64,000 nt of DNA from a virus (lineage: Duplodnaviria; Caudoviricetes): positions 1-64,000 of the IMG/VR virus record IMGVR_UViG_3300031998_000053; one strand, 5' to 3'. The notes beneath the pieces are model-generated. The model ran no database searches and was not told the DNA's origin. It saw only the letters and a program-made list of their open reading frames with translations. Position numbers and translations under genes: made by a program. Positions 10,163 to 61,860 of this stretch are shown piece after piece. How positions within the stretch are numbered: the stretch's first letter is position 1; the number at the start of each line of letters is the position of its first letter.

Positions 10163-11776
10163 ATGACACAGAAAGATTACATTGCACTGGTGAACCAGGC
10201 ACAGAGAAAGAGCTATGAGTATTACGTCCTGTCGGCTCCGACGATTAGCGACACCGAGTTTGACGTGCTGGTGGCTGAGATCGAGAAGGCTGAGTCTGAA
10301 CATCCTGAGTGGATAGTTCCTGACTCTCCGACACAGTGCGTAGGTTCCGACCTGTCGGCCAATGGTCGCCGTCAGATCATCCATCGTACACCGATGCTGT
10401 CGTGCCAGAAGGCTAAGAACCTGGACGAACTGGCTAAGTGGGTTAGTAAGAGTGAGCAGCGTATGAATGAGCTGACACATAGCAACCATACCGGCGGTTA
10501 CAACTATGTGCTGATGTGGAAGTATGACGGCATTTCGTGCTCTATCGTTTATCAGGATGGCGAACTGGTGAGTGCATCGACTCGTGGCGATGGTAGGGTA
10601 GGGCAGGATATCACCGAGCATGTGAAGATGATGGGTAGTGTGCCCCAGCAGCTTTCAAAGATTTACTATGGCGAGGGCTTTTCTCTCAAAGGTCGTATTG
10701 AAGTGCGTGGTGAGATCTGTTGCAGTAAGAAGAATCTGCCGTTGCTCTCGCAGAAGTACACCGACTGCCGTACTGCCGCCAGCAGCTTGTGCAACCAGGC
10801 CGTGCCCGATGAGTATGACATGGCTATGCTCGACTTCATTCCCTGGGATGCTATAATTGACGAACAGATCAGCTGCCAGCGTCACCTTTGTTCTACGCCG
10901 TTGGGTTATCCCTGGCATAAGCTCTCATTCCTGGAGAACCTGCGTTTCGTGCATCGTGCAGAGACTTTTTCACCTCATGGCTACGAAGCCTGTGCTGCCT
11001 GCATTGCAGAGCGTGAGAAGGAGCGTGACGCTTATCCTTGGCCTGTTGATGGTGTGGTTATACGCATTACGCATGATGACTACTTCCAGATGTTCGGTGC
11101 CACTGAGCACCATCCTCATGGCTCTATTGCCTATAAGTTTGCACCGGCTAAGACCATTACCCGCTGCACTCGTATTGAGGTGACTGTCGGTAAGACCGGC
11201 AAGCGTACTCCCGTCGTACACTTTGAGCCTGTCACCATTATGGGCCGTACCGTCCGTAAGGCCAGCGTGGGCAGTGAGGCCACTCTCCAGCGTCTTGGTG
11301 TGGTGATGGGTAGCACCATCGAGGTAGGACTGGCTAACGATGTCCGTCCGACTGTCTATCGTGTTATAGAGGATGCAGAAAATCAGGCTCCCGAAGTTAC
11401 GGAAAATGACCCCTTAGAGGGCATCGACTTCCCTGGTGAAGAGAGTCCTGTATGTAGCAACATCGTTGCTGCCTCTGAAGAGGAACAGCCCGAAGATCCT
11501 TGGTTGGCTCCGTCGTTTGCAGATCTCTATCCAGAAGCATTGGAGCGTCACGATGCCCCTACGCCTCCAGTAGTGGAGCCTGTTGCCGCTCCTGTCAGTG
11601 AGGATGATGGCCAGCAGTCGCCTGGTGGCTCTGTTGCCGCTCCTAACGGTAAGCATAAGATTCTGGCTGCCGTGACCACTCTCTGCGTGGCTCTGGCCAT
11701 TGTGTGTGGTGCTGCTGTGCTCCTGGGTGCTCTGGCTTTTGCGCTGCCGGTGCTCAATGGAACACTTCGCGCATAA
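10163..11776 (+). CDS. ligA: Truncated NAD-dependent DNA ligase (adenylation + OB domains) with acidic linker and C-terminal hydrophobic helix
   Basis: YY..APTISDTEFD, HRTPMLS, KYDG, STRGDG, EVRGE, DGVV, IAYKF, VGKTG motifs; no Zn/HhH/BRCT region evident. Confidence 0.85.
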   Translation: MTQKDYIALVNQAQRKSYEYYVLSAPTISDTEFDVLVAEIEKAESEHPEWIVPDSPTQCVGSDLSANGRRQIIHRTPMLSCQKAKNLDELAKWVSKSEQRMNELTHSNHTGGYNYVLMWKYDGISCSIVYQDGELVSASTRGDGRVGQDITEHVKMMGSVPQQLSKIYYGEGFSLKGRIEVRGEICCSKKNLPLLSQKYTDCRTAASSLCNQAVPDEYDMAMLDFIPWDAIIDEQISCQRHLCSTPLGYPWHKLSFLENLRFVHRAETFSPHGYEACAACIAEREKERDAYPWPVDGVVIRITHDDYFQMFGATEHHPHGSIAYKFAPAKTITRCTRIEVTVGKTGKRTPVVHFEPVTIMGRTVRKASVGSEATLQRLGVVMGSTIEVGLANDVRPTVYRVIEDAENQAPEVTENDPLEGIDFPGEESPVCSNIVAASEEEQPEDPWLAPSFADLYPEALERHDAPTPPVVEPVAAPVSEDDGQQSPGGSVAAPNGKHKILAAVTTLCVALAIVCGAAVLLGALAFALPVLNGTLRA

Positions 11777-11820
11777 TCATCAATTCATAGATTCATAAAT
11801 TCATAAAATCATTATAGTAT

Positions 11821-12648
11821 ATGTCAGAAATTAGAGAAAATCAAGTAAGACCACTCCCTATATGGGATGGCGAACTATCACAGTACAGTCAGCACTTTAT
11901 GACTGGTATGCAGTTTCATGGCCCATTTATTGTGACGGCTCCGCAAGCTCGTAATGACCTTGGCCAGTGTATCATCAGCACTCGATCACCACACCTGGTA
12001 TGTAAGATTCATGCTTTCAAGACCAATATGGGCGAGGGTGGAAATGAGAAAGCTCGCGCACAGGAAAAGCGTGAGGAAATGGCACGGCTGGCATGGCTTC
12101 AGCAACGTGCAGACGCATTCGACAATGAGCGTGAGGCATTGCGTCAGGGCATAACCATCCGTGACTATATCGAGCAGAAGGGTAGGGTATATGACGAAGA
12201 GTTTGACCAGCCGCGTATCGTGGTAAAGGTACCTGGACTCTCAGCCTATCTGGAACTGCTGGGGTGCCTTGATTCATTGAATGAGGGTGAAATGGATTCT
12301 ATCGACTGGACGGGTGAGCATGGCATATTGGCTACACTTGACAGCATGGCACAGTGGGCACAGAACATTTGGGATCGTAAAGACCGACGCTGCCGTGCGT
12401 CATCGACTCTCGACATGCAGCCGCTACCTGAATGGCAGGCTGATGCCTACGACCCAGAACTGCGTCCCTGGATGCCTAAGAAGCGTGGCCTTGGTCATAC
12501 CTATATCGACCCCAGCCGCCGCCCAGAACTGTTGCACTCGAAGGCTCCGCAAGGCTCTGCCGACTATGGCATGATACGCGATCTGAAACGTGCGACTGCC
12601 GACAATGCAGCTGCTGGCATGGCTCCTGAAAACTATGGTGATGAATAA
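11821..12648 (+). CDS. Hypothetical protein
   Basis: 275 aa ORF. Confidence 0.75.
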   Translation: MSEIRENQVRPLPIWDGELSQYSQHFMTGMQFHGPFIVTAPQARNDLGQCIISTRSPHLVCKIHAFKTNMGEGGNEKARAQEKREEMARLAWLQQRADAFDNEREALRQGITIRDYIEQKGRVYDEEFDQPRIVVKVPGLSAYLELLGCLDSLNEGEMDSIDWTGEHGILATLDSMAQWAQNIWDRKDRRCRASSTLDMQPLPEWQADAYDPELRPWMPKKRGLGHTYIDPSRRPELLHSKAPQGSADYGMIRDLKRATADNAAAGMAPENYGDE

Positions 12649-16068: not shown

Positions 16069-16671
16069 ATGAGAAAAAAATCACTGCTTTTCGGTTTCTT
16101 GTGTTGCTATATCATAGCAGCCCTATCCTCGTGTTCTGCTACTCAGACTACCATTGACCACTCAGAGAGTCACCACATAGATAGCAGCTATGTGCAGATG
16201 CAGTTGCAGCAGTTGGTCAGTCAGCAGCAGGCCCGTTACGACTCTCTGATGCGTGTGGTGCAGCAGCGTGACTCGATTTCACAGAATATCAATGAGCAGG
16301 AGCGTGAGCACATTACCGAAACGGTTACGTCGTGGATTGACTCGTTGGGACGCAAGGTGACTCAGGAGGCCCGTACCATCGACCGCCAGCGTGACCGATC
16401 AGAGGAACTGCGCCAGCAGCGTATCATCAATGAGCAGGAGCAACGCATCCAGTCGTGTCAGGAGCGTATAGACTCGCTCTATAATCTCTTACTCGAAAAG
16501 ACGGCTCTGGAAGTAAACGACACTACCAACTATCACAAAGAGGTTGTAAAGCCGGCACACACGCCATCGTTCCTGCAACGTGTGCATGACTTCCTGACTA
16601 CCCTTGTCAACGTCATCGTCTTTGCCGCTATCTTCGCCTTTATCATTCGCTGGAAACGCCGTAAGTCGTAA
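16069..16671 (+). CDS. Lipoprotein with coiled coil and C-terminal TM helix (spanin-like)
   Basis: Signal peptide with LSSC lipobox; C-terminal LVNVIVFAAIFAFII-RWKRRK. Confidence 0.6.
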   Translation: MRKKSLLFGFLCCYIIAALSSCSATQTTIDHSESHHIDSSYVQMQLQQLVSQQQARYDSLMRVVQQRDSISQNINEQEREHITETVTSWIDSLGRKVTQEARTIDRQRDRSEELRQQRIINEQEQRIQSCQERIDSLYNLLLEKTALEVNDTTNYHKEVVKPAHTPSFLQRVHDFLTTLVNVIVFAAIFAFIIRWKRRKS

Positions 16672-17651
16672 GATACTCCCTACACCTGAAGCCTTTTCGT
16701 GGCTCAAACTCTTCAAAGGAATGAGCTACGAAATGGGCTTTTTTGTTGACCCATCCGGCCATGTCCTTTTGCCATTGCGGAATGATGTGGTGTGGGTTGT
16801 TGGGATCACGGTAGGGCTGTGCATGTGGATAGACATAGCGGCCTTGATGCGAGGCCCGCGTTTCTTGTGTACGATGCCACCAATAGGTGATGCGCTCGTA
16901 GCACTCCCTGAAGTCTGAGGTGAGCATGGTGTATAGGAAGTATTGCCCTGTGAAGCCGTAGCGGTTGATCATATTCATGGCTCGCTCACATTCTGCTATC
17001 TGTCCGTGTGTGTCACAGCCGAAGCGGATGCGGTTGTTATCGAGCCACTTCACTTTTGCCAGCAGCTGTGCTATCTCATCCGTTACCAGTCGTGCATCGA
17101 GGGCCTGATTGAAGTCCACTCGGTAGCCTCTTTCTATAATCTTTTGCAGCTGCTGTATGCAGTATTCGCCAGCAGCCAGAATATTGTTATCCATCAGCAC
17201 TAACTTACGACGGCCCTCAATGGCTATTTCGTCCACATCCATATATGGCCGGATGGCTCCCTCTTTCTTGGGAACCACACACCAACGGCATTTGTTAGGA
17301 CAGCCGCGAGTCAGGAAACCGTAGGCCGTATCTTTCGGGATGTTAGGATAGATGGAGTAATCGGGTTGCAAACGGTCTATTTCGTCGGGCAACTGGCTTA
17401 GAGGATCATACCCCGTGCCTCCCTTGATGATTTTGTCTGCATCGTAGATGTAAGTATCGTCTGGGGAAAAGTTAAACACCTTCGACATATACACAATGTC
17501 GTAGTGTTCCATGGGGCTTGCCCATGAGATTTGCCCCCCCCCTATTACGCCAGTATCTCGCAATCTTAGCGAGTGCGAGATTGGGGTAAATCGTGGCTCC
17601 CCATTTCTTTTTCTTGGCGTGTCCGTCCACGTCCACAAGTCCTATTTTCAT
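16643..17651 (-). CDS. Radical SAM protein, frameshifted at a G9 tract (in frame at G8)
   Basis: N-terminus MKIGLVDVDGH...YPNLALAKIARYWRNRGG joins QISWASP...TRGCPNKCRWC only if one G is removed at 17534-17542. Confidence 0.85.
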
Positions 17652-17653
17652 AT

Positions 17654-17729
17654 ATTAAGCATGTTTGAACATTCTTATTTTGCAGAAATCTGTCACATTA
17701 AGCATGTTTGAAACTTCTTATTTTACAGA
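17654..17729. repeat. 33-bp imperfect direct repeat between the PAPS-reductase-like and radical SAM genes
   Basis: ATTAAGCATGTTTGAA..TTCTTATTTT.CAGA at 17654 and 17697. Confidence 0.8.
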
Positions 17730-18828
17730 TACCCGTCAAATTCTAATTCATACTGGAGGAAACGCTCGGCGTACCATCGTTTGTATGACATGCCACTGAT
17801 CCACCAGTCGTAGATGTTTTCGGCTATTTCGTGCTCTTGCTCATCAGTCAAGCCGTCAGACGATGAGCTGGAAGAAAACCCGCGTTTTCCCTTTCCAATG
17901 TGTCGGGTCTGGGTGCAGGATGTACCCGTAATCGTCGATTTTCTTCTTTGGATAGCGGTTTGAAGTTGGTTCCAATACCGTACCACAGGGTTTCCGTTGG
18001 TAAGAATTTTGAGAAATACCCCCCCATGTCGTATAGATATGATGGCTTTTATCCAGTTGCGTCTAACATGGGGCCATCGTTCATTCTCTATGCGTTTTTG
18101 GCGTGGGTTGCTCATCGGGCACCCGATGCAGCCTATACGATGAAAGCCCTGGTCGTAGAGTTCGCAGTGTGGAACTCTTACCACGTCATTCAGGAACTTC
18201 CATACATCACGCTCCGTCCAGTTGATGATAGGTGATATCAGCAGACTCTCTTTGCCGCTGATGCAGCCAATGGTGGTTTCTTCGGTAGCATTGGTGATAT
18301 TGATGCCTTTTGCCTTGCGGTACTCATCCAGGCCGTCTAAGGTGCCGCTGTATTTTCGGCTGTCAATCTCTACTTCATTGCGTTTCTTGCGTCGGCTGCT
18401 CTCCTGCCTCCTGATGCCGATGAGCGTCACCTTACCGGCTCCCGCATGTTCTTTGTATTCCTCACAGCACCAACGTACTTTCTTTGTTGGTAGCAGCTGC
18501 TTGCGCTCTGCCACATGATAGATGCTATCCTTGGGCTTTATCAGTTCCACTTCTGGATAGTGCTTCCTGACGAAGCGGATCACCTCTGGCGCATCTACTG
18601 AAGTCAGATTCATGTGTCCCTCGAAGCGTACACCGGCCAACTGTGCAATATGATAGAGGGTCTGACTGTCTTTTCCTCCGCTGAAAGCAAGGAAATACCC
18701 CCCCTATTATCGTAGGCCAGAGCCAGCTTCTCGGCTCTCTGCAAAAGATTGATGGAATACTCCATCTTCCTTCGCAGGCCCTTACTGGCTCTTGCATACG
18801 CTTCCTCTAATGTGATGTCTATTTTCAT
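17723..18828 (-). CDS. PAPS-reductase-family protein, frameshifted at a G7 tract (in frame at G8); second G7 tract near the C-terminus
   Basis: MKIDITL...YDNRGG + YFLAFSGGKDS (PP-loop) joined by +1 G at 18698-18704; RWCC, GIRRQES, RIGCIGCP motifs. Confidence 0.85.
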
Positions 18829-19099: not shown

Positions 19100-19695
19100 T
19101 TAATTAAACCATTTGATTACTGTGTCACCATGATAGCCTTTTTCCCAGACAAACCAGGCGTATGCAACGGCACTGCCTTTGACTGAAGCAAAGTCACCGT
19201 TGGGCGCACATAGCAGACGTGAGCTGCTGACCCATACCCGTGCCGGCGGTTGTGTCTTGAACAGGTGGCGACGCCCTTTGCCTTCAAGGAATGTGAGTTT
19301 GAGGAACATGCACACCTTCTTTCCTTCAGGAATGATAGCCAGTGCTTTTTCCACAAACTGCTGTGCGCAGGCATAGGGTGGGTTGGTGACGATGTTTCCG
19401 TCCCATTCCTGATTGTCGATGGCCAGGAAGTCGGCCACTTCGCCAAAGCCTCTGTCGATGATGTCGCGTGAAGTGACAAAATACCCCCCCCCCCGATAAG
19501 TACCTTGGAGATATGGCCCTCTCCACATGCCGGTTCCAGGATGGGACCGTCGAACTTTTCCAGCTTCAGCAGCCACTCTGTTGCCTTTGGCTCGGTGGCG
19601 TAGTAGTCCTGTGCCACTCGCTCACTCTCTGCATGGTTGCTGGCACTGATGCCTTTGAATACGGAGGCATTGCCTCCAGTCCAGTCTTTCTTCAT
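19100..19695 (-). CDS. Adenine DNA methyltransferase, frameshifted at a G11 tract (in frame at G9/G12)
   Basis: DYYAT..ILEPACGEG in one frame, IVTNPPY..AYAWFVW in another; junction at 19484-19494. Confidence 0.85.
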
Positions 19696-20505
19696 ATCTC
19701 GAAATCTAATGTTAGCTGTCTGCTTGCTTCTCTGATTCGTTTTTCGGCAACCTTGAAATACTTGGGGTCTTTCTCAATGCCGATATACTGTCTTTTCTCC
19801 ATGATGGCCGCTACACAGGTGGTGCCGCTTCCCATCGTATTGTCTAAAATTACCCCCCCCCATTTGGCTATAAGTCCTTATCAGGTAGCGTAGCAGATCC
19901 ACGGGCTTTTGTGTTGGATGGAACACAGTGGTCTCATGCTCTTTCTGAATATGGATGATGCTCTGAGGAAATTTCTCGTTTGGTCGGGTAGGGGCCACCT
20001 TGCGTATTTGCTTATCGTAGTCATACGTTCTGCCGGTCTTGAACTGTCCGTAACAGTTGTTAGTCCTGGGGTGCTCCAACTTTCCCTGAGAATGGTTTGG
20101 CTCTCCGATGCCCATCTGAGGGTTAAAGACAGGTAACTGCTTATAGAACACACAAATATCCTCATGGCAGCGCATGGGCATACGGTTGGCATTCAGAAAG
20201 CCGGTGCCGCGTCCTTTATCCCATATCAGATTGTATCTCCAGAGCTTCCTATTGCTTTGCATGAGGTCGCTGGTAAACATTCCCTGGGCAAAGAGTATAA
20301 TTGCACCATTGGGCTTAATAATGCGCTCATATTGCGCCCAAAGTGGCTGGAATGGAATCATGCGGTCCCATTGCGCATTAGGGTTGTCTTTGTGAAGCAC
20401 TTGGTATGGTAGATCGCAGATGATGGCATCAATGCTTTCGTCTGCTATCCCTGTCATCACGTCCAGGCAGTCGCCTAAGTATATGTTGTTTGGCTCTAAG
20501 TTCAT
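19692..20505 (-). CDS. Beta-class N4/N6 DNA methyltransferase, frameshifted at a G9 tract (in frame at G8)
   Basis: DLPY, HPTQKPV; motif I VILDNTMGSGTT is reached only by removing one G at 19853-19861; the restored stop overlaps the next ATG (ATGA). Confidence 0.9.
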
Positions 20506-29109: not shown

Positions 29110-30777
29110 TTATCCGAAGTCGAGCATGGAATTTTTCTGCTTCTGCTGATATTCCTCGTGGTACATCTGCCAGATGTCACGGTAATGGTTGATATCATCC
29201 ATCAGCTTGCCACGCATCTGCTTGGTGACATTCTTCTGCTCGTTGATGGCAGCCTGTCGGTTGTCGGCACTGAGCATCTGACGCAGGCAGTGTCCCACAA
29301 TGGTACGAGTGCCCCAGCCACCGAAGCTGAAGTTGCTCTCAGGACAGATAATCGTATCGCCACAATAGGAGTACCAGATGTTATCCTCGATGGTGTAGAA
29401 GTTGACAGCATCCTCACCGATAACCATCAGTACGTCGGGTGCATCCTTATAGATGGCGGCACAGAGGGCAACGCCTTTCCAGGTCTCTAACTTCACAAAC
29501 AGCATGTCATCCAATAGCTGCTGGTCACGCAACAGGTCAATGAGCTGCTCATTGCTGGAGTCAGCACATCCGCGCTCATCGAAATGGAGTTTCAACTGAT
29601 CACCGTTATTGCCACCGTAGAGCCATGTGAGGTAGGCATGGAGAATCTTATCATTCCAGGATGGGAGCATCTGGCGTACCTCTTCCTGGTCTGCTTTGTC
29701 GAATACCAGCTTGGTAAGGTCAAACTCAATGCAGTTGGCCCAATCTCTGAGGTAGGGTTCAGGTGACAGGCGCACACAGTTGCTTTCCAGTCCTAACAGC
29801 TCGTGTGTCTGTGTGCCAAACTCCTTTTGGAACTCATCGAATACCTTGTTGGTGATATTGGCAAAGACAGGACCTAACAGGTCAAAACGAGCCTCGAAAG
29901 TGTCGATGCGCTCTGCCAGTGTCGGCTCTTTCACCTCTGCCAGTTCCACCGTCATGTCACCATCGGCATCCCTCTGCTCCTGGGTCTTCAGGAAGGTGTC
30001 GAGCATCTGCTGGCGACGTTTCAGATCATCCTCGGCCATCATCAAACGGATTTTGTCTGAGGTGGCTCTGTCGGGTTTCTGACCTGGCTTCAGCTCGTTT
30101 AGTTTACTCTGGTAGAATTGTTCCAGTGTGATGGCCTTTACCTGATACTGCTTGGCCAAAGCAGAAAAGTTTTTCAGCGAATTGTTTTGCTGATAAAACT
30201 CCACCACGGCACAAAGGTACTCGTGGAATTTCTTTAATCTCTGTTCGTTCATATATAAATTGTTTTTAGGGGTTATAGTCTCTTGTGCCTGCTCCGTAGG
30301 CAGTGGCTTTGCAGCAGCTTCTTTCTTCTCGGCCTTCTGGCGTTTCTTCCGCTCGGCTTCCTCCTGTAAGGCTTGCTGACGCTCTGCCTCACGTCGTTTC
30401 TGCTCTGCAATCTTCTCTTCACGAAGCTGCTGGGCGCGTTCCTTTTCCTCGGCCTCGCGCTGGCGGTTCTCTTCGTCGATCTTTTCCTGGGCCACTTTCA
30501 GCTGCTCTTTCCATGCCTCCAGTTTTTCCTCGGCGGCCTTTGCTTTGGCATCTGCTTTCTCAGCCCGTTCACTCCATCCAAAGGGAGCACCCACCAAACG
30601 GTTCTCTTTCACCATCCGACGGGCTACGCATGGATTGATGCTGCTGCTCGATGCAGGGATAGTCCTGCCGTCGGGATGCTTCCAGATCTGATGCTTGGTG
30701 GTACGGTCGAGTACAAAGCCATTCTTTTTCAATAGCCGCTCCCAATCTTTTTTGCTGATGTTATGTAAACCTCCCAT
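29110..30777 (-). CDS. Protein with N-terminal HicA-like domain, coiled coil and unknown C-terminal domain
   Basis: WERLLKKNGFVLDRTTKHQIWKHPDGRTIP resembles HicA; E/K/Q-rich helix. Confidence 0.6.
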   Translation of the reverse strand: MGGLHNISKKDWERLLKKNGFVLDRTTKHQIWKHPDGRTIPASSSSINPCVARRMVKENRLVGAPFGWSERAEKADAKAKAAEEKLEAWKEQLKVAQEKIDEENRQREAEEKERAQQLREEKIAEQKRREAERQQALQEEAERKKRQKAEKKEAAAKPLPTEQAQETITPKNNLYMNEQRLKKFHEYLCAVVEFYQQNNSLKNFSALAKQYQVKAITLEQFYQSKLNELKPGQKPDRATSDKIRLMMAEDDLKRRQQMLDTFLKTQEQRDADGDMTVELAEVKEPTLAERIDTFEARFDLLGPVFANITNKVFDEFQKEFGTQTHELLGLESNCVRLSPEPYLRDWANCIEFDLTKLVFDKADQEEVRQMLPSWNDKILHAYLTWLYGGNNGDQLKLHFDERGCADSSNEQLIDLLRDQQLLDDMLFVKLETWKGVALCAAIYKDAPDVLMVIGEDAVNFYTIEDNIWYSYCGDTIICPESNFSFGGWGTRTIVGHCLRQMLSADNRQAAINEQKNVTKQMRGKLMDDINHYRDIWQMYHEEYQQKQKNSMLDFG

Positions 30778-30779
30778 AA

Positions 30780-30923
30780 TTATTCTGCATGAATAAAACA
30801 GTCTCTCGTTTCTTCGTCGCAATGCTCAATAGTCTGGATGTCTCTGCTGGGGCAGAAGGCACCGTATTGGTCGAATCGCTCACAGATACTTGCTAAACCG
30901 CAGTTTACACCGTGACATTTCAT
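30780..30923 (-). CDS. Small Cys-rich protein (47 aa)
   Basis: Manual translation MKCHGVNCGLASICERF... Confidence 0.5.
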   Translation of the reverse strand: MKCHGVNCGLASICERFDQYGAFCPSRDIQTIEHCDEETRDCFIHAE

Positions 30924-30940: not shown

Positions 30941-31948
30941 TCATAGGTTAATAGTAATAGTTACAATGCCTTCTTTCACTTTGATTTCGCCCGTCCATCC
31001 CCTGCGCTGCAATTCCAGTGCAAGCTCTTTGTCGGTAAAACCGTCAAGTGTAATCTTTTGTTCCAGGGTAGGTGATGTTTTGCCCTGGGTGCTTGTGATA
31101 TGGCCTCTATCCATCAGCAAAGGTAACTCCTGCTCTGCTGGTGTGGCCTCTGGTCCCTTTTCGGCCTCCGTTTTTGAAGTGTCAGCTTTGGGTTTCTTTA
31201 CTTTCTCCGCTTTTTTCTTGGGTTTCTCCTTTTTCCTTGCTGGCAATGGCCTTGCTGTCGCATTTGCTTTCGCCCCGCGCCCCCGCATATCATCCGCAGG
31301 ATTAAAGGAGTCGATGTCTTGCTCATCGCACCAATAGAAGCCACCGGCGGGACGGCCTTTCAGAATGGCACGGTCAATGTTCCAAATCCCAAGCTCTTTC
31401 TCAGCAGCACCTTTCTTGGGCCAAATCTTAATCACCTCCAGTGTGCTCATGTCGATCTGAGCAACTGGTCTCGGCGCACGGTTCCGGCTGCGCCCCAGCC
31501 TGTCAACATCCTGTTTCATATCGTTATTGATTTTTGGAAATTTTTGGTCTGTTTTTGGCAATTCTTGTGTCGTTTCTGGAAATTTTTGTTCCAAAATAGG
31601 CTCTTTCCGTTCCAATTTTAACAATTTTCGTTCTGAAAAGTTCCTTTTTTGTTCCGTATGCTGTGATATCGTCACAGCCTTATCTCTTGTCAGGTCGCTA
31701 TACTCAAAACATGGCTTCACGCCTGCAAACTTCAACACATGCACAACCACACTGGCACCTTTTACCTTATCGCTGAATCCAAGCACAGCCTTGCTGATGG
31801 CCTCCCTCAGTATATCCTTGGTCAGCTTCTCGCATGGCTTATCGTAGAGCGTCTTGAAAAGGCGATCGAATATCCAGCGCGTCTTAGCGGCAAAAGCCTT
31901 GATGTCTTCCTGCTGGCTCCAGCTTGTATGTGCTTCCTTCAGTGTCAT
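30941..31948 (-). CDS. Protein with NUMOD1-like DNA-binding segment
   Basis: RPVAQID...IKIWP...AEKELGI.NIDRAI...AGGFYW. Confidence 0.6.
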   Translation of the reverse strand: MTLKEAHTSWSQQEDIKAFAAKTRWIFDRLFKTLYDKPCEKLTKDILREAISKAVLGFSDKVKGASVVVHVLKFAGVKPCFEYSDLTRDKAVTISQHTEQKRNFSERKLLKLERKEPILEQKFPETTQELPKTDQKFPKINNDMKQDVDRLGRSRNRAPRPVAQIDMSTLEVIKIWPKKGAAEKELGIWNIDRAILKGRPAGGFYWCDEQDIDSFNPADDMRGRGAKANATARPLPARKKEKPKKKAEKVKKPKADTSKTEAEKGPEATPAEQELPLLMDRGHITSTQGKTSPTLEQKITLDGFTDKELALELQRRGWTGEIKVKEGIVTITINL

Positions 31949-43646: not shown

Positions 43647-45101
43647 ATGATTGCAAAGATTTATCCTGACAACCACCCTGAACTTCAGGGCAAAAAGGAT
43701 CCGAAGCACCCTGTGAGGTACTTCGACATCCGAAAACTCACCCCCCCCGAATGCTATACGCTCATGGGCGTTCCAGGCCCATACATCGACGTGCTGATGA
43801 GCACCGAACAGCGACCTTATACGGCTTTTGTCGGTGTTGATAATCAGTTAGCAGTTTTCGGACTTGAACCGACGGCAACGATGAAAGAAGTAGAGGAAGC
43901 CTACCGTGAGGCCCTGGAAAGTCTCGAAACTCCCGTTCCTGATGATGAAGAGCATGATGATGATGCCACCGTTTCCGAAGATGAAGACGATGCCGAAGAG
44001 ATTGCCCTTATGCGTCAGAACTACGAACTGGCTTACAACACTATTCTGAAAGCACCGACTGAAGAAAAGTTTGGTCCTGTGCAGATCATCAGTAATAGCA
44101 ACCATTATAAACTCGCTGGCAACTCCATTGTCTGTGATGTTTTGATGTATATCTATGAGGAAATTTTCTATCCTACTGGCCGTCGTTTGCCTGCCGAACA
44201 GCAGGATATGTTTTCACTGCCTCAGTTCCAGCTTTCCCGCGACTGGAAAAAGCACCCTCTGAAGCTCGTTACTTTGTGTTCTGGCTATGATTCGCAAGCG
44301 ATTGCTTTCGATATGTTGAAAGAGCGTTATCCTGATTTTGATTACAGATTGATGGCCTGGGCAGAGTTTGATCCTGAAAGTAAACGTGCCCTTGATGAGC
44401 AGCCTGCCGTTGTTGCTCATAACCTCCTTTTCCCAGACGCAAAAGACCTCAATCGTGGCGACATGACAAAGGCTGACTGGAGCAACCTTGCAGGTGAAGA
44501 AATCGACTTCCTGACTTATTCTACTCCATGTCAGAGTATTTCACAGGCTGGCAAACGAGAGGGCATCAAAAAAGGCTCTGGCACCCGTTCTGCTGTGCTA
44601 TGGCATACAGAGGATGCCGTAAAGGTGATGCGCCCAAAGATTCTTCTGCAAGAGAATGTCCGTGCGCTGATTAACAGCGTAAATATGCCCGACTTCCGCG
44701 AGTGGTGTCAACTGTTGGAAAAGCATGGATATATCAATTTCCTGGCACCGTCATTCCCGACACCATGGGGCGAGACGAAACGTGATAAGAAGACTATACC
44801 AGGCATTCTGAATAGTAAGCATTATGGTGTGCCGCAAAACCGTGAGCGTGTCTATATGATTTCTGTCCGTAAGGATGTGCTCGACGATACGCAATATGAG
44901 TTTCCGCGTCCATTCCCATTAGAAAAGTGTATTGCTGATATCCTGGAAGATAATGTTGATGAGCGTTTCTTCCTGAAGCCCGATTCAGTAATCAAGTTCC
45001 TTACTGTGAATGAGAGTGACCAGCAGGCTAAGATCTTCTATATCGTCACCGATCATAAACTCTCTGATGAAGAAATAGCAAAGGCCCGTGCCGGTCAATA
45101 G
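43647..45101 (+). CDS. Circularly permuted C5 cytosine DNA methyltransferase core (motifs IX-X before I-VIII); C8 tract in frame
   Basis: RKLTPPEC (IX), YKLAGNSIV (X), TLCSGYDS (I), STPCQSIS (IV), QENV (VI), PQNRERVY (VIII); C8 at 43741-43748. Confidence 0.9.
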   Translation: MIAKIYPDNHPELQGKKDPKHPVRYFDIRKLTPPECYTLMGVPGPYIDVLMSTEQRPYTAFVGVDNQLAVFGLEPTATMKEVEEAYREALESLETPVPDDEEHDDDATVSEDEDDAEEIALMRQNYELAYNTILKAPTEEKFGPVQIISNSNHYKLAGNSIVCDVLMYIYEEIFYPTGRRLPAEQQDMFSLPQFQLSRDWKKHPLKLVTLCSGYDSQAIAFDMLKERYPDFDYRLMAWAEFDPESKRALDEQPAVVAHNLLFPDAKDLNRGDMTKADWSNLAGEEIDFLTYSTPCQSISQAGKREGIKKGSGTRSAVLWHTEDAVKVMRPKILLQENVRALINSVNMPDFREWCQLLEKHGYINFLAPSFPTPWGETKRDKKTIPGILNSKHYGVPQNRERVYMISVRKDVLDDTQYEFPRPFPLEKCIADILEDNVDERFFLKPDSVIKFLTVNESDQQAKIFYIVTDHKLSDEEIAKARAGQ

Positions 45102-46064: not shown

Positions 46065-46094
46065 CCCGCTGGTTATCCAGCGGGTTTTCTCTTT
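46065..46094 (+). terminator. Intrinsic terminator closing the replication/MTase operon
   Basis: CCCGCTGG-TTAT-CCAGCGGG followed by TTTTCTCTTT. Confidence 0.7.
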
Positions 46095-46146
46095 GTCCCT
46101 TGCTTCCTCGTTTCCATCGCTATCTTTGCCAAAAAATAACATAATT

Positions 46147-49100
46147 ATGGCAGATACAAAGAAATCCGAGGTAGTCATTACCTGTAACGCCCAACAGCCA
46201 AAGGCCGCTGTCCGTGCTATGGAAACGGAACTGAAACGTCTTCAGGCTGCATACAAGCAACTCTCCGACGCTGGTAAGGCCGGCACAGAGAGGGCAAAGC
46301 AGATGGCTCACGAAATCAAGGAACTCTCCATCGCCGTGAAGGAGGGTAAGGCCAACATGGATAAGATTGTTACCGTGACAAACAATCTTTCCAATTCTTC
46401 CCTGTCACAGCTGCAACGTGCTTTGCGCCAGGTGAAGAAAGAAATGGGCCGTGTCAGCACCGATTCGCCTAAACTCGATGACCTGCGCCAGAAATACAAG
46501 GCCATCACCGACCAAATTAAGATTCTTCAGGGCGAAATGGTCAACATTCAGAAGCACATGGGCAACCTCTCTGCAACCTCTGATTCGTGGCTGCAAAAAG
46601 CTATCAATCAGCAAAAGCAGTTGGTATCTCAGACCGACAAAACGAATAGTGGCTATCAGCGTCAGGTGGATATTCTGCATCAGCTTCAGGCCGAACAGCA
46701 GAATAGGGCAATGGCTACCGTATTGAATGGTGGTGCCACTGCTGATGATCTCCGTGCCGCTCGTGCCTCTATCACGTCTTACCGTGACCAGTTGGGCAAA
46801 GGTGGTATTATGCCTGTTGGTGGTGACGTGGCACGGGAAATTGAAGCCTGCAATGTCGCTCTGAAGAAATGTGATGAGCAGTTGGATGTTATTGCCGGTA
46901 AGGAGAAACAGATTGAGCCGACGGTGCAGGAGATAGAGCAGGATGTCACGAAATTGGTTGGCAGTCTGGCTAACGCCTCTCCTGAACAGCTCCGTAAGGG
47001 TTTGGAGCAATGCCGTAATCAACTGGATAAGATGGCTGCTAACGACCCTAACCGTCAGAAGTGGGTTACTTGGGCAAAGCAACTGAAGACGGCTCTCGAA
47101 GGTGTGGACCGTGAAGCCGTTGACATCGACAAAGTGATGCGTAACCTCAAAAAAGAGCCATTGGAGAATCTTCGTAAGGCTGCAAAGCAGCTGGAAGAGG
47201 AAATGGTGAAACTGAATCGTGAGGATGCAAAATATAAGGATCGCCAGAAGCAACTACAAAAGATTCGTGGTGAGATAGACAGCGTTACGCGCTCTATCAA
47301 TAATCAGGCTTCTGCATGGAGTACGACGTTTAGAAATATCTCCATGTACTTCGGCGTGTTCCAGCTCTTCTCGATGGCACAGCAGAAACTCCAAGAAATG
47401 CTCCGTAGTAACCTGGCTTATTCTGACCAGTTGGCTGATATTCGTAAGGTGACTGGACTGGCTACTAAGGATGTGAACGAACTGGCTGAAAGCATAGCAA
47501 AACTTGATACGCGCACAAGCATTCAGGAATTGTCAGATTTGGCGTATCAAGGCGGTAAAATGGGATTTGGAAAATACGGTGTGGAAGGCATGGTCGAATT
47601 TGTCCGTGCTGCCGATCAGGTAAAGGTGGCTCTTTCCGATGACCTCGGAGAAGACAGTCTCTTGCAGATTTCAAAGCTCATTGATACGATGGGCCTCATT
47701 CCGAAACTCGGTGTTGAAAAGTCCATGCTGTCTGTAGGCTCTGCCATTAACCAGCTTGCGGCCACTTCTACTGCCAGTGGTACGCATATTGTGGACTTCT
47801 CGAAACGCCTTACTGGTTTGTCTCGTATTACAGGAATAACTACGCCAGAGCTTTTGGCATTAGGAAGTGCAGCGGATGCTTTAGGGCAGGCTCCTGAAGT
47901 TGCGGCCACGGCTTTTGGTAAACTCTTCACATCGTTGCAGACCAATCATAATTTGATTGAGCAGCAGCTGAATATGGAGAAAGGCACCATCAATAACCTT
48001 TTCTCACAGGGTAAGGCAATGGAGGCCATTCTGCAAATCATGGAAAAGATGCGCGAGAAGGGTAACATGAATGCCCTTGGCAACATCTGGAAAGATCTCG
48101 GCTCTGAGGGTCAACGCTTAATAGGTGTGATGGCCACCATGTCGAAGAATGTAGATACTGTACGCGCACATGTAGAGGAAGCTAACGAGGCTTTTGAAGA
48201 GGCAACATCGCTGACTACTGAGTATGCCATGAAGCAGGAAACGGCTAATGCCATTCTTGAACGTGCCAACCAACTGTGGGTGAGAACATTTGTAAATCCA
48301 GAGGGTGTTGACACCGTAAAGGAACTGTCGCAGGCTTGGTATGACATGAGCCAAAAGCTGACCTCTTCGGCTCTTTATATGGGTCAGATAAGACTCGTGC
48401 TGACAATGATCATCGCCGCCGTGAAACTATTGGTGGTTCTGTTGCCTACGCTAATCCAGTTCCTACTGTTCAAGGGTGCCTATATGGGTGTGATGGCTCT
48501 CTATCGTGGCTTCGTGGCCATGAAGACTGCCATTATCGGTGCTATGGTGGCACAGCAGGGCCTTAACACGGCTATGAAGGCTAACATCTTCGGACTGATA
48601 ATTTCCCTGATAGCTTCTGCCGTCGTTTGGCTAACAAACTATGGCAATGCTGCCGATGATGCTGCCAACAAGCAGAAAACGATGAACGAGTACATCAAGG
48701 AGGCTGCTGCTGAGATCGACAAAGAAACTCGTAAATTGGAATCCTATAAGCGTGTCCTGGAAGACGCGAACACGTCACAGGCACAGCGTGAGCGCATCCT
48801 GAGACAGTTTAACCGTACTTACAGCACCTATCTGAATAAACTCGGCATCGAGGTCAATTCGGTGGATGACCTGCGTAAGCATTATGCGCTGCTGAATGAG
48901 GAACTTCGCAAGAAAATATACTATCAGACGAAGCAACGCGCTTACGATCAGGAATTGGGCGATAAGGCTGGAGAGTTGGGCAAAAAGGCTCGTGCTTTCT
49001 CTGACCTGACGGTAAACAATTCGCGTGATGGCTCTTTTGCTGCCTACGATACCAAATGGCTCGAAGATCAGATAAACCAGCATCAGAATACTTATGGTAG

Positions 49101-51786
49101 CGTAAACTGGGTTTCCATCTATTCTGACATGGTGCAGAGTCGTTTCGGTAGGCGTACTGATGGTAGAAGTGGCTTTAACAACGACTATTCGGTGTTTACC
49201 GATATGGCTGGTACTGAGCATAACGTAGCAGCTTATGGTAAGGCTATTCGTGAATATGTGGATGCCTGGCAGGAGTATAACAAGACGAAAAAGAGTATTG
49301 ATGCAGCTCTTGACCCGCTCATCGGCGACTATGATCCGTTTGCTGAGACTCCAGGTGAACTAACGAATGATGCTGTTGACAAAGAAGCTGAGAAGCGTCG
49401 CCGTGCAGAGGAAGCAGCTCGCCGTAAGGCTCTTCGTGCTGAAATGCGCGAGGAACAGGATAAGGCCAAGGCTATCATCGATAATGTAAAGAACTACTAC
49501 GAGCGTCAGATTGCTGCCATTACGGAAATGGCTACCCGTACCGGCATGGATTCAGAGCTTCAGAAGAAACTCGTGGACGGTATGACGGTACGCATGAATA
49601 GCGCACTGGCTAATGTGCGTCAGGCTATTGCCGGCACAGAAAACGAATGGGCTGATTTCCGTCAGTCGATGATGGATGACCTCTACGAGCCGCTTTCTGC
49701 CGATGGTACCAACCAGTCAACGCAGTTGCTCGACAATATCATTCACAATGACATCGACCAGCTGAAAAAGATGATTGAAACGCTCTCTAAGGAGCTGGGG
49801 CAGAATGGTTCCGTATTGCTCGATCAGATATGGCGTAAGGCTACTGAGAATGAGTTGGCCAATGCTAAACAGGCAAATACGGCATACCAGGCCCGCCAAA
49901 AAGTGTTGTTGGAAAAGAACTATACCGGCAAAGTAAACCGTGACTATGAGGGTCAGATGGAGCAGTTGGGCGTGGCCGAGCTGACTTCCAACCAGTCGCA
50001 ACAACTGATGCAATGGTCTCAGGAAGGTAAGTCTGAGGATATTCAGAACTTCGTTGATAGTCGCTCTCAGTTGTGGCAACAGGCATTCTTGAAAGCTCGT
50101 GAGCATATTGTGGATGTCTTTGCTGCTGATGTCTCTACCGAGGACGGCCAGAAGGCAATGCTTACGTTACTCTTTGGTGAGGATTACAATGGCACATTGT
50201 CCGGCTCTGCCTTGGAGTCTATGCTGAATATGGACTTGCAGCAGTGGCAAGTGTTCTATCAGAAGCTCATCGAAATGTCCGACGCTTACACCGATGCCCA
50301 GAAGAAAGCCTACGACGAAGCAAAACGCCGTGCTGACTTCGTGTTTAACAACCGTCCTGACATTCAGGGCATCGACAAAGCCACACAGGATCTTTCGACT
50401 ATCAATAGCGACCAGCAGCGTTTCGGCTCTGATAAGAACTTCACACAGCAGCTTGGAATGTCCTGGAATATGGATTCTGACCCAGAGATACTTCGCTATC
50501 GTCTGCTGTCAGAAAAGGCCCGTCTCTACTATCAGGAAATGAAGTCGCTCCGTGAGCAGGATAAGATCAGCGAACAGCAGTTGACAGATGCTAAACGTCA
50601 GATGATGGAGGCACAGACGGCCATGGCCGATAAGGTGGCCGCTAAGTTCAATGAGCGTGTCCAACTGTTGCAGTCATTCAGTGAACCGATGGCGACCTTT
50701 GCCGAAGGGGTAGGGGAGTACCTGGAAAGCCTCTCTGATGATGCGGAGGATTCTAACGAGAAGATGAAGAACATGGCTAAGACCATGCTCAAAGCCTACG
50801 CTAAGATGACGCTTCAGCTGATGGCCGAAGACTTGACGCGCCGCGTCACCAAGCAGCTGTACTATCGTCAGGAGGAAGCCGACGAAACGCTGCATCAGCA
50901 GACGTTGCTCCAGATACAACAGATGTATCAGGCTCTCATGCTGACAGCACAGCAGACGGGCGACACGGCACGTCTCACACAGCACTCGACATCTAATGCT
51001 GCCGAACTGTCTGAGGAAGCAACGACCACAACAGGTAAGGTGGGACTCGGTATTGCCGGTGGTGCTGCTAAGATCATTGGCACCTTGGGCTTCTGGGGTA
51101 TTCCGCTCATCGCTGTTATCACGGCCTTGCTGATGGGCTTGCTCTCCTGGGCTATCTCTGCTGCCTTTGGCGGTAGTGACAGTGGCGGTGCTGATTCTGG
51201 TCCTAACGTGAAGTTGGCCACGGGTATGCTGACATACGACGGTGGTAACGTGCAGTCTGTCGGTGGCGGTTCCACTCCATCCAGTGACACTACAAGCCCT
51301 GTCCTCGGTACGGATGGTAAGGTGTATAACGCTAAACAGGTGGGTAAACTACAGACTGGCATCGTGACACAGCCCATCGCTACTATGGTCAACGGCCAGC
51401 CGTCTCTCGTGGGCGAGAAAGGTCCTGAAATGGTGATTGGTAGGGAAACAACAGCAGCCATGCAAATGGCGCGTCCTGACCTTATCAATGAGATAGTGAA
51501 GTTCGATAAAAACTTCTCAGGGCGTGGATTCCGCACTTATGACGATGGCAACCTGTCCGACTTCACCGTGCCCGATGCTTCAGCAGCGGGTGGCAATATG
51601 CTCACCTCTGATGACATCCAGGGCTTCCGTGATACGATGGCAGAGTTTACGGCCATGATGTTGTTACTCCAGAAGAATGGCCTGCACGTCAATAAATTCG
51701 GACGTGGAAGCGTCACTCAGGAGTCTGCCGCCGGTGCCGCATTCATGCGTCGTAACTCCGGCGATCGTCTGTGGCGTAAGGGCTAA
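46147..51786 (+). CDS. Phage tail tape measure protein
   Basis: ~1880 aa helical protein; LADIRKVTG...ELSDLAYQGGKMG TP901-like core; hydrophobic segments; VGEKGPEMVI near the C-terminus. Confidence 0.85.
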   Translation: MADTKKSEVVITCNAQQPKAAVRAMETELKRLQAAYKQLSDAGKAGTERAKQMAHEIKELSIAVKEGKANMDKIVTVTNNLSNSSLSQLQRALRQVKKEMGRVSTDSPKLDDLRQKYKAITDQIKILQGEMVNIQKHMGNLSATSDSWLQKAINQQKQLVSQTDKTNSGYQRQVDILHQLQAEQQNRAMATVLNGGATADDLRAARASITSYRDQLGKGGIMPVGGDVAREIEACNVALKKCDEQLDVIAGKEKQIEPTVQEIEQDVTKLVGSLANASPEQLRKGLEQCRNQLDKMAANDPNRQKWVTWAKQLKTALEGVDREAVDIDKVMRNLKKEPLENLRKAAKQLEEEMVKLNREDAKYKDRQKQLQKIRGEIDSVTRSINNQASAWSTTFRNISMYFGVFQLFSMAQQKLQEMLRSNLAYSDQLADIRKVTGLATKDVNELAESIAKLDTRTSIQELSDLAYQGGKMGFGKYGVEGMVEFVRAADQVKVALSDDLGEDSLLQISKLIDTMGLIPKLGVEKSMLSVGSAINQLAATSTASGTHIVDFSKRLTGLSRITGITTPELLALGSAADALGQAPEVAATAFGKLFTSLQTNHNLIEQQLNMEKGTINNLFSQGKAMEAILQIMEKMREKGNMNALGNIWKDLGSEGQRLIGVMATMSKNVDTVRAHVEEANEAFEEATSLTTEYAMKQETANAILERANQLWVRTFVNPEGVDTVKELSQAWYDMSQKLTSSALYMGQIRLVLTMIIAAVKLLVVLLPTLIQFLLFKGAYMGVMALYRGFVAMKTAIIGAMVAQQGLNTAMKANIFGLIISLIASAVVWLTNYGNAADDAANKQKTMNEYIKEAAAEIDKETRKLESYKRVLEDANTSQAQRERILRQFNRTYSTYLNKLGIEVNSVDDLRKHYALLNEELRKKIYYQTKQRAYDQELGDKAGELGKKARAFSDLTVNNSRDGSFAAYDTKWLEDQINQHQNTYGSVNWVSIYSDMVQSRFGRRTDGRSGFNNDYSVFTDMAGTEHNVAAYGKAIREYVDAWQEYNKTKKSIDAALDPLIGDYDPFAETPGELTNDAVDKEAEKRRRAEEAARRKALRAEMREEQDKAKAIIDNVKNYYERQIAAITEMATRTGMDSELQKKLVDGMTVRMNSALANVRQAIAGTENEWADFRQSMMDDLYEPLSADGTNQSTQLLDNIIHNDIDQLKKMIETLSKELGQNGSVLLDQIWRKATENELANAKQANTAYQARQKVLLEKNYTGKVNRDYEGQMEQLGVAELTSNQSQQLMQWSQEGKSEDIQNFVDSRSQLWQQAFLKAREHIVDVFAADVSTEDGQKAMLTLLFGEDYNGTLSGSALESMLNMDLQQWQVFYQKLIEMSDAYTDAQKKAYDEAKRRADFVFNNRPDIQGIDKATQDLSTINSDQQRFGSDKNFTQQLGMSWNMDSDPEILRYRLLSEKARLYYQEMKSLREQDKISEQQLTDAKRQMMEAQTAMADKVAAKFNERVQLLQSFSEPMATFAEGVGEYLESLSDDAEDSNEKMKNMAKTMLKAYAKMTLQLMAEDLTRRVTKQLYYRQEEADETLHQQTLLQIQQMYQALMLTAQQTGDTARLTQHSTSNAAELSEEATTTTGKVGLGIAGGAAKIIGTLGFWGIPLIAVITALLMGLLSWAISAAFGGSDSGGADSGPNVKLATGMLTYDGGNVQSVGGGSTPSSDTTSPVLGTDGKVYNAKQVGKLQTGIVTQPIATMVNGQPSLVGEKGPEMVIGRETTAAMQMARPDLINEIVKFDKNFSGRGFRTYDDGNLSDFTVPDASAAGGNMLTSDDIQGFRDTMAEFTAMMLLLQKNGLHVNKFGRGSVTQESAAGAAFMRRNSGDRLWRKG

Positions 51787-56460: not shown

Positions 56461-56952
56461 ATGGCAAACAGAACACAGCAGAATCCAGTAGTCAGCTCCG
56501 ATGAGTGGTACACCCCTCGTTGGGTTGTGGACGAACTCGGCCCGTTTGACCTTGATCCATGTGCGCCTATGCAACCTCCATACGAGATTGCGCCGTTGTC
56601 GTTCAATAAGGAGCAGGATGGATTGAGTCAGACGTGGCCGGACGCTGCTGTTGTGTTTATGAATCCACCTTATAGCCGTCCTCTGCTGCGTCCGTTTGTT
56701 GAGAAGCTGGCAGAGCATGGCAACGGCATCGCATTACTGAAGAATCAGGTGGATAATCTGCTGTTCCAGGAGGTCGTTTTTACTCGTGCTGCCTCGATGC
56801 TCTTCATGCGTCATCGCATCAAGTTCATTACGCCAGACGGCACCACTGGCTCGCCGTTCTTTGGCTCGGTGCTTGTGGCTTTCGGCCATGAATGTGACCG
56901 CCGCTTGCGTCGCTGTTCCATCCCAGGAAAGTATGTTGTATTAAATATGTAA
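56461..56952 (+). CDS. Phage N6-adenine DNA methyltransferase (Dam-like)
   Basis: DEWYTP, FDLDPCA, DGLSQ, MNPPYS. Confidence 0.9.
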   Translation: MANRTQQNPVVSSDEWYTPRWVVDELGPFDLDPCAPMQPPYEIAPLSFNKEQDGLSQTWPDAAVVFMNPPYSRPLLRPFVEKLAEHGNGIALLKNQVDNLLFQEVVFTRAASMLFMRHRIKFITPDGTTGSPFFGSVLVAFGHECDRRLRRCSIPGKYVVLNM

Positions 56953-60960: not shown

Positions 60961-61860
60961 ATGGCAAAATTTCAAGATGTAATCGAATGTCTGAAAAAGG
61001 GTGGTTCTGCCCGTCGTATTTCGTGGACTGATAACCGCGAAATCATCCGTCAAATTCCGCAGTGTATATCAAAGGACATCGTGCCTAAGATGACCTCATT
61101 GCCTGCAAGTATCAAACCCAAAATCAGCACTGTTGGCTCTGGTGAAATATCGTACCATGACCAGGTAATCGTCATTACTTTTGTCGATGACGAAAAGACT
61201 CCTGCCAGTGCTACATACTTCATCCCCACATGGGAAGATATCTTTGCTGATGACTGGTCCTGCCTGACACCTGCCGATGAGCCTGAAACGGAAGAAAAAG
61301 CCCCTGTGCCTGAAGCGTCAGCTTCGGGTGAAGACCAGCAGCCGGTCATCGACACCTCTATTCCTGTCACCATGCGCATCAAGACTTACGAGGATGCCTT
61401 TAATGAGGTAAACATCCGTGCCATGCAGGGTGATAAGGTGGCCGAAAAACTCATAAAGGATTTGCAGTTCAATTCGCCTTACACAGATGATCTGCTGGCC
61501 TACATCAAACTCCGCATTATCACCTATGCCATCAATGAGGGCTGGGAACCTCAATTCGTCGTTGATGAGTATCGCTACTGGCCTTGGTTCTGGCTCTATA
61601 CACAGCAGGAGATAGATGCTATGAACGAAGCGGAGCGTTCTAAGCTGCTGTTCGTCGGGGGTGACGCGAGTGGCGGTGCGCAATGCGGTCTCGCTTCTGC
61701 GAGCTCGGTTGGCGCTTTCTCGCCCTCGACCTCGCTCGTCGGTGCTCGCCTGGCCTTCAAGTCTCGTGAACTTGCAGAGTATGCTGGTCGCCAGTTTATT
61801 GAGCTTTGGGCGGCTTTCTCATTCAAACCTGTTGTGAATGGCCATGGCAAAGGAAAATAA
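60961..61860 (+). CDS. DUF2829/Tad2-like domain fused to a domain with a DGR-type variable region
   Basis: FQDVIECLKKG..ARRISW...VPKMTSLP...PTWEDIFADDW; A-depleted VGG.A..GA.CGL...S..AFS.S...GARLAF. Confidence 0.65.
   Translation: MAKFQDVIECLKKGGSARRISWTDNREIIRQIPQCISKDIVPKMTSLPASIKPKISTVGSGEISYHDQVIVITFVDDEKTPASATYFIPTWEDIFADDWSCLTPADEPETEEKAPVPEASASGEDQQPVIDTSIPVTMRIKTYEDAFNEVNIRAMQGDKVAEKLIKDLQFNSPYTDDLLAYIKLRIITYAINEGWEPQFVVDEYRYWPWFWLYTQQEIDAMNEAERSKLLFVGGDASGGAQCGLASASSVGAFSPSTSLVGARLAFKSRELAEYAGRQFIELWAAFSFKPVVNGHGKGK

Follow-up and report, generated by a model that had tools for sequence, protein, structure and literature searches.

Phage DGRs are understood as tools for switching host receptors. 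Tad2 proteins, for their part, are sponges for the Thoeris and CBASS signals, and DUF2829 is also the family of AcrIIA7. The characterised targets of phage DGRs are receptor-binding proteins, as described in the passages of Baykov et al. 2023 (PMC10743442) that deal with them, and a distal, non-tail second target has already been published for Quimbyvirus/LoVEphage in the relevant part of Benler et al. 2021 (PMC8008677). In the corresponding passages of an article in Nature 2025 (PMC12629997), a second variable repeat (VR), located distally near counter-defence genes, is reported for four prophage species. Where these last two papers discuss the distal target, it is named a C-type lectin protein near counter-defence genes, and its family is read as a non-structural, defence-island target. 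The main-text passages of PMC8008677 and PMC12629997, supplements aside, do not describe a fusion of this target to DUF2829; in the full-text literature no paper was found that combines DGR with DUF2829, and the combination of DGR with Tad2 returned one preprint, on a cohort virome, that treats the two subjects without connecting them.

The gene described here belongs to the family of these distal targets. Relatives are encoded by LoVEphage, BI-TP1 and PV4-TP1 (tblastn, 45-48% identity over residues 139-286 of the window protein), and the homologue in LoVEphage (MW660583.1) is the distal VR of that phage: 18 of 24 template adenines are changed in it, none of the 84 other bases is, and the template is located 15 kb away. 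The templates of LoVEphage and of the present lineage are visibly homologous, and both phages possess one template, a VR1 in a tail protein and a distal VR2 among accessory genes. The first-pass annotation of this DNA had pointed to a target layout typical of Bacteroidota DGRs, and the homologous template and distal target of LoVEphage bear this out. The proteins differ in that neither the LoVEphage protein (194 aa) nor that of the complete relative G004 (168 aa) carries the Tad2-like domain and the acidic linker of the window protein. What is new is the DUF2829 fusion; the distal non-tail target of this family is already known.

When compared to the BPP-1 DGR (Mtd, template, bRT and Avd), the system shares the adenine-specific differences between VR and template, the randomisation of AAY codons at positions 1 and 2, a VR placed towards the 3' end of its target and a reverse transcriptase (RT) related to PDB entry 8ub7. 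It differs from BPP-1 in possessing two targets located 15-20 kb apart and in the stretch of protein that follows VR2; furthermore, neither an Avd-sized ORF between the primary target and the RT nor a significant hairpin downstream of either VR was found, and no solved C-type lectin fold was matched by the window target. In the two-target phage DGRs presented, with the Tentaclins, in the pertinent sections of Baykov et al. 2023 (PMC10743442), one DGR likewise mutates two functionally different gut-phage genes; the Tentaclins possess N-terminal C-type lectin domains followed by Ig domains and are proposed to be adhesins, whereas neither domain is found by Pfam in the window protein.

Architecture of the distal target gene

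The stretch of DNA analysed (the window, 64,000 nucleotides) constitutes the first 64 kb of a 75,965-bp IMG/VR record with a CheckV completeness of 72%, and represents a phage lineage of roughly 100 kb that occurs in runs labelled bovine gut metagenome. The start of the target gene (Table 1) was set at 60961 because an alternative, longer ORF that begins at 60832 would overlap with its upstream neighbour, and because the MAKF start is common to the homologues. The 299-aa product is composed of a Tad2-like/DUF2829 domain, an acidic linker and a phrog_11581 domain. In the full-length AF2 model, the linker has a pLDDT below 50 over residues 106-126 and is modelled as disordered, and it aligns to a gap in the 272-aa homologues. 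This full-length model was set aside for fold searches on account of its mean pLDDT of 59.2. VR2 is located within the phrog_11581 domain and is followed by 34 residues up to the C-terminus of the protein. The 3' boundary of the likeness between VR and template (GCCTTC versus AAATTA) was established from an alignment covering three relatives. The GCCTTC site is presumably the position of an IMH-like element, with a function as in the BPP-1 DGR model.

Table 1. Coordinates of the distal target gene and its component features in the window.
Feature	Position	Strand	Basis
Distal DGR target gene, 299 aa, stop codon included	60961..61860	+	ORF; homologues 94-97% identical over the full length
Tad2-like/DUF2829 domain, long-insertion type, aa 3-100	60967..61260	+	PF11195 E 3e-7, 31.3 bits
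Acidic, proline-rich linker, about aa 101-133	61261..61359	+	Absent or shorter in relatives
phrog_11581 domain, aa 134-290, scaffold bearing the variable repeat	61360..61830	+	phrog_11581 E 5.9e-45
Variable repeat VR2, 103 nt	61643..61745	+	Homology to the relatives' template repeat; 61651-61740 contains the mutated codons
GCCTTC, 3' boundary of the VR/template likeness	61746..61751	+	Common to VR1 and VR2; the template has AAATTA

The gene was first singled out through a stretch at 61651-61758 said to contain few adenines, and the count agrees (6 A, 36 C, 38 G and 28 T), as does the translation given for it, FVGGDASGGAQCGLASASSVGAFSPSTSLVGARLAF. Adenine makes up 25.1% of the record as a whole, the median 108-nt segment contains 27 A (1st percentile 12), and segments of this length with 6 A or fewer begin at just 108 positions in the record. 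The 108-nt segment with the highest GC content in the record (0.694) begins at 61647. Among the A-poor segments listed, those elsewhere begin at 30425-30454 and from 31122, in stretches of minus-strand genes that are charged and rich in K, E and A; being charged low-complexity stretches, both sites were rejected as VRs. The first lies in a 570-aa protein (29113-30822, minus strand) with an N-terminal HicA-like match to phrog_353 'toxin' (E 8.5e-7, aa 23-74), after which a long K/E/A-rich charged stretch forms the A-poor site on the plus strand. The second is a K/E/P-rich low-complexity stretch of a 335-aa protein (30944-31948, minus strand) with no family match.

Template repeat and reverse transcriptase in related phages

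The first-pass annotation saw neither a template repeat nor an RT in the window, and this holds for the entire 75,965-bp record: no template was found in it by blastn or by an adenine-wildcard scan of both strands, and RVT_1 was likewise not found. The search that it had proposed, for a template next to an RT, succeeded only outside the phage's own record, in the relatives G001 (96 kb), G002 (41 kb) and G004 (106.6 kb, rated 100% complete). In all three, a weak RVT_1 match is present 15-20 kb downstream of the distal target, the distance from VR2 to the template and RT being 14.8 kb in the relatives that are 94-95% identical in the gene and 19.7 kb in the more distant, complete relative. Two VR-like segments adjoin the RT. 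One of them, VR1, is located at the 3' end of a gene for a 415-aa protein with a match to the tail-protein family phrog_5302; the other is the template repeat, a 103-nt, adenine-rich and non-coding copy in which all variable sites are occupied by adenine. The three records agree in their content of these elements, with exactly one template and two VRs apiece.

In G001, a 448-aa RT ORF begins approximately 280 nt past the template, and the same arrangement is observed in G002 and G004. The ORF matches phrog_1423 'Reverse transcriptase' (E 1.3e-67) and the 328-aa PDB chain 8ub7 (E 3e-20), which we take to be bRT; against RVT_1 it scores 23-25 bits, below the cut-off of 29.6. The RT of these relatives is long, and its C-terminal extension matches phrog_19665. 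In the ORF lists, no Avd-sized ORF occurs on the plus strand between the primary target and the RT (L047 6650-8723, corresponding to G001 72,649-74,722).

The relationship between VR2 and this template is adenine-specific. When the window VR2 is compared to the template of G002, whose copy of the gene is 94% identical to that of the window, 19 of 26 adenines are changed, whereas the 77 other bases are all identical; with the G001 template as reference, one of 77 non-adenine positions is changed, and five further VRs compared to their own templates follow the same pattern, with 0-1 non-adenine changes each. In blastn, the G002 template matches the window's own record at 61643-61752. Between VR1 and the distal target, BLASTP aligns the 31 templated residues and nothing else. 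The ten variable-looking codons that had been picked out beforehand all sit at adenine-containing template codons, though the list was incomplete, as it omitted the mutated codons TTC (aa 231), TCG (258) and GTC (260) as well as CAA (241), which is unchanged here. The earlier proposal that this is a remote DGR target other than a tail fibre is right, with template and RT present in relatives; the adenine-specific variation that it had named as a point on which it could fail is present, and falls at template-adenine codons only. By sequence comparison, the window gene is the second, distal target of the phage DGR, the cassette of which is seen in relatives.

In a separate observation, the RNA-Seq run X15 yielded a 151-nt contig over window positions 61643-61707 that carries the flanks of the template repeat and not those of VR2. 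Transcription of the template is thereby weakly hinted at, although DNA carry-over is possible.

Truncation of the record at VR1

At the very end of the record stands ...YYCDGYYAATTGQLL, which corresponds to the first 7 nt of VR1, and the final 5,968 nt or so of the record align at 96.5% to the flank upstream of the G001 cassette. The primary target gene, a tail protein of the phrog_5302 family in relatives, extends from about 74,880 to 75,965 of the record (L050 about 10,880-11,965) and runs off the record end at the start of VR1. The template and RT are thus absent from the record because the assembly stopped at the hypervariable VR1, and the 72% completeness is in part attributable to the same break. 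Judging by the corresponding distances in G001 and G002, one would expect the template approximately 0.5 kb past the record end. The assignment of the window gene to a DGR thus draws on the relatives and on the truncated primary target.

VR2 has a similar effect, in that the contigs L008 and L041 end within it and two cluster members, P0002 and P0278, are chimeras or carry a frameshift there. Both VRs break assemblies, and phage records from metagenomes may easily lack the retroelement as a result, which constitutes a practical warning for their use.

Hypervariation among relatives and within samples

In a DNA alignment of seven relatives (protein matches 89-97% identical), the differences concentrate in approximately 90 columns, at codon positions 1 and 2, and the flanks are identical. 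At the protein level, 17 sequences were compared, comprising the window protein, 12 members of the 413-member cluster P0001 and four loci. The VR peptides are all distinct (17/17) in proteins that are otherwise about 94-100% identical, and the 14 VR positions at which 3-10 residues occur are exactly the template-adenine codons; outside the VR, only the linker residues 114, 117 and 123 reach three residues among the close relatives. Approximately 14 codons are randomised in a 30-residue loop, and the remaining protein is nearly invariant. The 98- and 99-aa members of cluster P0001 were rejected as homologues of the target, since they correspond to the upstream 98-aa gene and reflect a clustering quirk.

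Variation within samples was assessed on Logan contigs of four runs, which gave partial support. In run X1, the likely source sample, a single contig with a depth of 460 spans VR2 without differences; contigs drop rare variants, and this single form is no proof of ongoing diversification in this population. In run X3, the contigs fragment at VR2, where several short variants overlie one another, some of them being VR1 to judge by their loose ends. The gaps in cover in run X9 are uninformative.

The source-sample contigs, with no within-sample variant, would agree with the view that VR2 is a relic of past DGR writing and that retrohoming is now confined to VR1. The hairpin or cruciform search downstream of VR2, VR1 and the VR2 of G004 returned nothing better than shuffled sequence (z 0.47, -0.09 and -0.75, respectively), and the first of these values would point in the same direction; VR1, however, is likewise without a significant hairpin. 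A relic is, moreover, difficult to reconcile with VRs that differ in all 17 of these nearly identical proteins, with non-adenine positions that are fully kept (0/77 changed), with the retention of the GCCTTC 3' boundary of VR1, or with the contigs that break at VR2 in other samples. We consider such a relic highly improbable, and the distal DGR target is probably active.

The Tad2-like N-terminal domain

The N-terminal DUF2829 match that had been suspected is indeed present, scoring above the Pfam cut-off of 25 bits (Table 1), and a search at the genome level places it at the same position with 33 bits. Also in keeping with the earlier suggestion, a profile of the domain (45 homologues) retrieves from the PDB only Tad2 chains and AcrIIA7: at E <= 1, the six distinct sequences are SptTad2, two SPO1 Tad2 sequences, 8v3e, ModTad2 and AcrIIA7. 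Two motifs of Tad2 (SPO1 Gp34.65, HgmTad2 and SptTad2), one in the N-terminal helix and the other, D..A.DW, towards the C-terminus, align with the window protein, and the long insertion between these motifs in SptTad2 and HgmTad2 is resembled by the window domain. Tad2, at about 90-100 aa, is free-standing, whereas the window domain is fused to a hypervariable domain of 165 aa. An alignment that joined Tad2-only rows to C-domain rows (A4) was dropped, as the Tad2-only rows had 9-18% identity to the first row and were taken to be misaligned.

The closest relatives of the domain (65-78% identity) are 173-aa proteins in which it is followed by a crAss001_48-like helical domain. This architecture, with a divergent Tad2-like domain and a C-terminal part matching PF21825, is common to the proteins P0063-P0119; compared with these proteins of related phages, the window protein has the hypervariable domain in place of the crAss001_48-like part.

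A model of four copies of the N-domain reaches a tetramer score of 0.93, as against 0.01 for the best control, with a pLDDT of 91 and at least 95% of contacts shared between runs; among solved pairs, 20 of 30 attained this mark, and among single chains one of 23. One of the modelled interfaces runs along helix 1 and the other through the insertion, and they are alike to the tetramer interfaces published for Tad2 in the structural passages of 10.1101/2023.11.15.567273. Since Tad2 tetramers have already been solved, the four-copy model demonstrates likeness only. We infer from it that the domain forms a Tad2-like dimer-of-dimers tetramer.

The ligand pocket presents a different picture. The contacts of HgmTad2 with gcADPR are W21, N22, G23, W87, L88, S90, T92 and D93, as given in the passages on ligand binding of 10.1101/2023.11.15.567273, and they are only partly kept in the window domain: W21 and D93 are retained, L88>I and S90>T are conservative, and N22>T, G23>D, W87>F and T92>E are changed. 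This numbering was mapped through the G004 Tad2-like protein and inferred from the motif pattern, which reads W-T-D and F-I-P-T-W-E-D in the window protein versus W-N-G and W-L-A-S-Q-T-D in that of G004. With four of the eight gcADPR contacts replaced and two more changed conservatively, ligand binding of the Tad2 type is doubtful. The domain is, by its profile score, a member of the PF11195 family, and the gcADPR pocket, as judged from the aligned residues, is not conserved. In G004, a separate, canonical Tad2-like gene (L056 2667-3116, corresponding to G004 65,666-66,115; 79.5 bits) has the W-N-G and W-L-A-S-Q-T-D motifs intact and is located 2.7 kb downstream of the distal target of that phage.

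These data bear on the simplest account of the fusion, in which the N-domain is a working sponge of the Tad2 type for Thoeris or CBASS signals and the variable domain is a separate module fused to it with no functional coupling. The PF11195 score above the cut-off, the Tad2-like tetramer model and the best PDB match, SptTad2, are what such a sponge would predict, and the long insertion concerned binds cGG in HgmTad2 and SptTad2; furthermore, G004 keeps both functions as separate genes 2.7 kb apart. On the other hand, the gcADPR contacts N22, G23, W87 and T92 are replaced, and the closest relatives of the N-domain are the fusions to the crAss001_48-like helical domain and not free-standing Tad2. 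On balance, an uncoupled sponge seems to us unlikely.

The variable C-terminal domain and its genomic context

The C-domain family comprises 1173 clusters (50% identity) at E <= 0.001, and its members are small and mostly viral, most of them being 155-260 aa in length. None of the homologues listed exceeds 362 aa, and a dedicated search for longer proteins with the C-domain returned nothing above 319 aa. A Pfam scan of 24 representatives of the longer proteins, extensions included, gave no match above any cut-off. Most members of the family are without the Tad2-like domain, and the fusion may for this reason say little about the core function of the C-domain.

The AF2 model of the C-domain (104-row alignment) consists of a helical core with a pLDDT of 81.5, and the VR loop has a pLDDT of 45-55. 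Foldseek found no match to this model in the PDB at E <= 0.001, the best VIA-align hit (Z 4.3, wide) was to a designed minibinder, and the profile of the domain (A5) against PDB sequences returned TIM44 at E 0.039 and nothing relevant. Hence, no solved C-type lectin or other fold was matched by Foldseek, VIA-align or the profile. In the ESM Atlas, only viral clusters of 'hypothetical protein' were recovered. This absence of matches does not make the fold a new one, nor does it speak for or against the C-type lectin fold asserted in the literature.

Upstream of the target gene, primase and thymidylate synthase genes are accompanied by a methyltransferase gene, by one resembling a nucleoside deoxyribosyltransferase and by an unnamed 98-aa gene (phrog_625), the last of which may be ASCH-like to judge by its sequence alone. 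Downstream, four small genes without an assigned role are followed by a head maturation protease at about 64.4 kb. From this gene content, the target gene closes the block of replication and modification genes. The unfused distal target of G004 (168 aa) is located in the same neighbourhood.

The window contains at least five DNA methyltransferase-like genes (5183-6679, 19120-19695, 19777-20505, 43647-45098 and 56461-56949), which suggests a heavy investment in DNA modification and anti-restriction, and radical SAM and PAPS-reductase-like genes are present at 16646-18640. A 1897-aa protein with tape-measure PHROG matches (46093-51783, plus strand) is encoded within the replication block and is thus well separated from the tail genes, which occupy 73-76 kb.

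As the characterised phage DGR targets discussed in PMC10743442 are receptor-binding proteins, the product of the gene might instead be a virion-associated adhesin or receptor-binding protein, in which a DUF2829-like tetramer anchors four variable domains to the capsid or tail and VR2 diversifies binding to host or mucus, as VR1 does for the tail protein. VR1 and VR2 are written from one template and share a loop chemistry, the target gene is located upstream of the head module, the head protease gene starting 2.5 kb downstream of it on the same strand, and a weak homologue (32% identity) in Bacteroides phage Versailles is annotated as 'tail protein'. Nonetheless, the window protein has no structural match in PHROG or Pfam, and the size limit of 362 aa among the listed homologues speaks against such a role. 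The LoVEphage homologue is, furthermore, found among methyltransferase, radical SAM, PAPS reductase and RtcB genes, with the cassette 15 kb off on the opposite strand, and the DUF2829 members that have been functionally tested are intracellular. A virion-bound role is, in our estimation, rather unlikely, while it retains somewhat more credit than the uncoupled sponge.

Proposed role and significance of the fusion

We favour a joint reading, which we hold to be about evenly balanced between right and wrong, that the gene is a distal DGR target and that its product is a multivalent intracellular binder, aimed at some factor of the host that varies and is probably part of its defences. Of these two elements, it is the mechanism of diversification that is well supported: template adenines do appear as any base in VR1 and in VR2. 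According to this reading, the template RNA would be reverse-transcribed with misincorporation opposite adenine, and the cDNA would replace VR2 (mutagenic retrohoming). The Tad2-like dimer-of-dimers tetramer would hold four variable domains on flexible acidic linkers, and the four-domain assembly would constitute a multivalent, fast-evolving binder.

The site of action is most likely the interior of the infected cell, in view of the lack of tail-fibre-like domains, the shortness of the protein, the position of its gene in the block and the family to which it is fused. Tested members of the DUF2829 family block host immunity, and the 299-aa protein may have an anti-defence role as well. A more specific proposal is that the protein is a tetravalent, DGR-diversified intracellular binder, analogous to an adaptive antibody, that tracks fast-changing host defence proteins or sensors, with the Tad2-like core acting as a signal sponge or providing avidity; we advance this tentatively, as a possibility that is somewhat doubtful.

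The second, non-tail target of Bacteroides phages has been without an assigned role because the protein had no recognisable domain. The present lineage offers the first domain-level clue to this second target, its variable module being fused to DUF2829, and through this fusion the programmed hypervariation of a counter-defence protein becomes directly testable. The material for such tests is at hand in a defined 299-aa protein, a natural library of VR variants and unfused relatives that may serve as controls. If the proposed role is true, the function of DGRs would extend from receptor switching to the programmed diversification of counter-defence.
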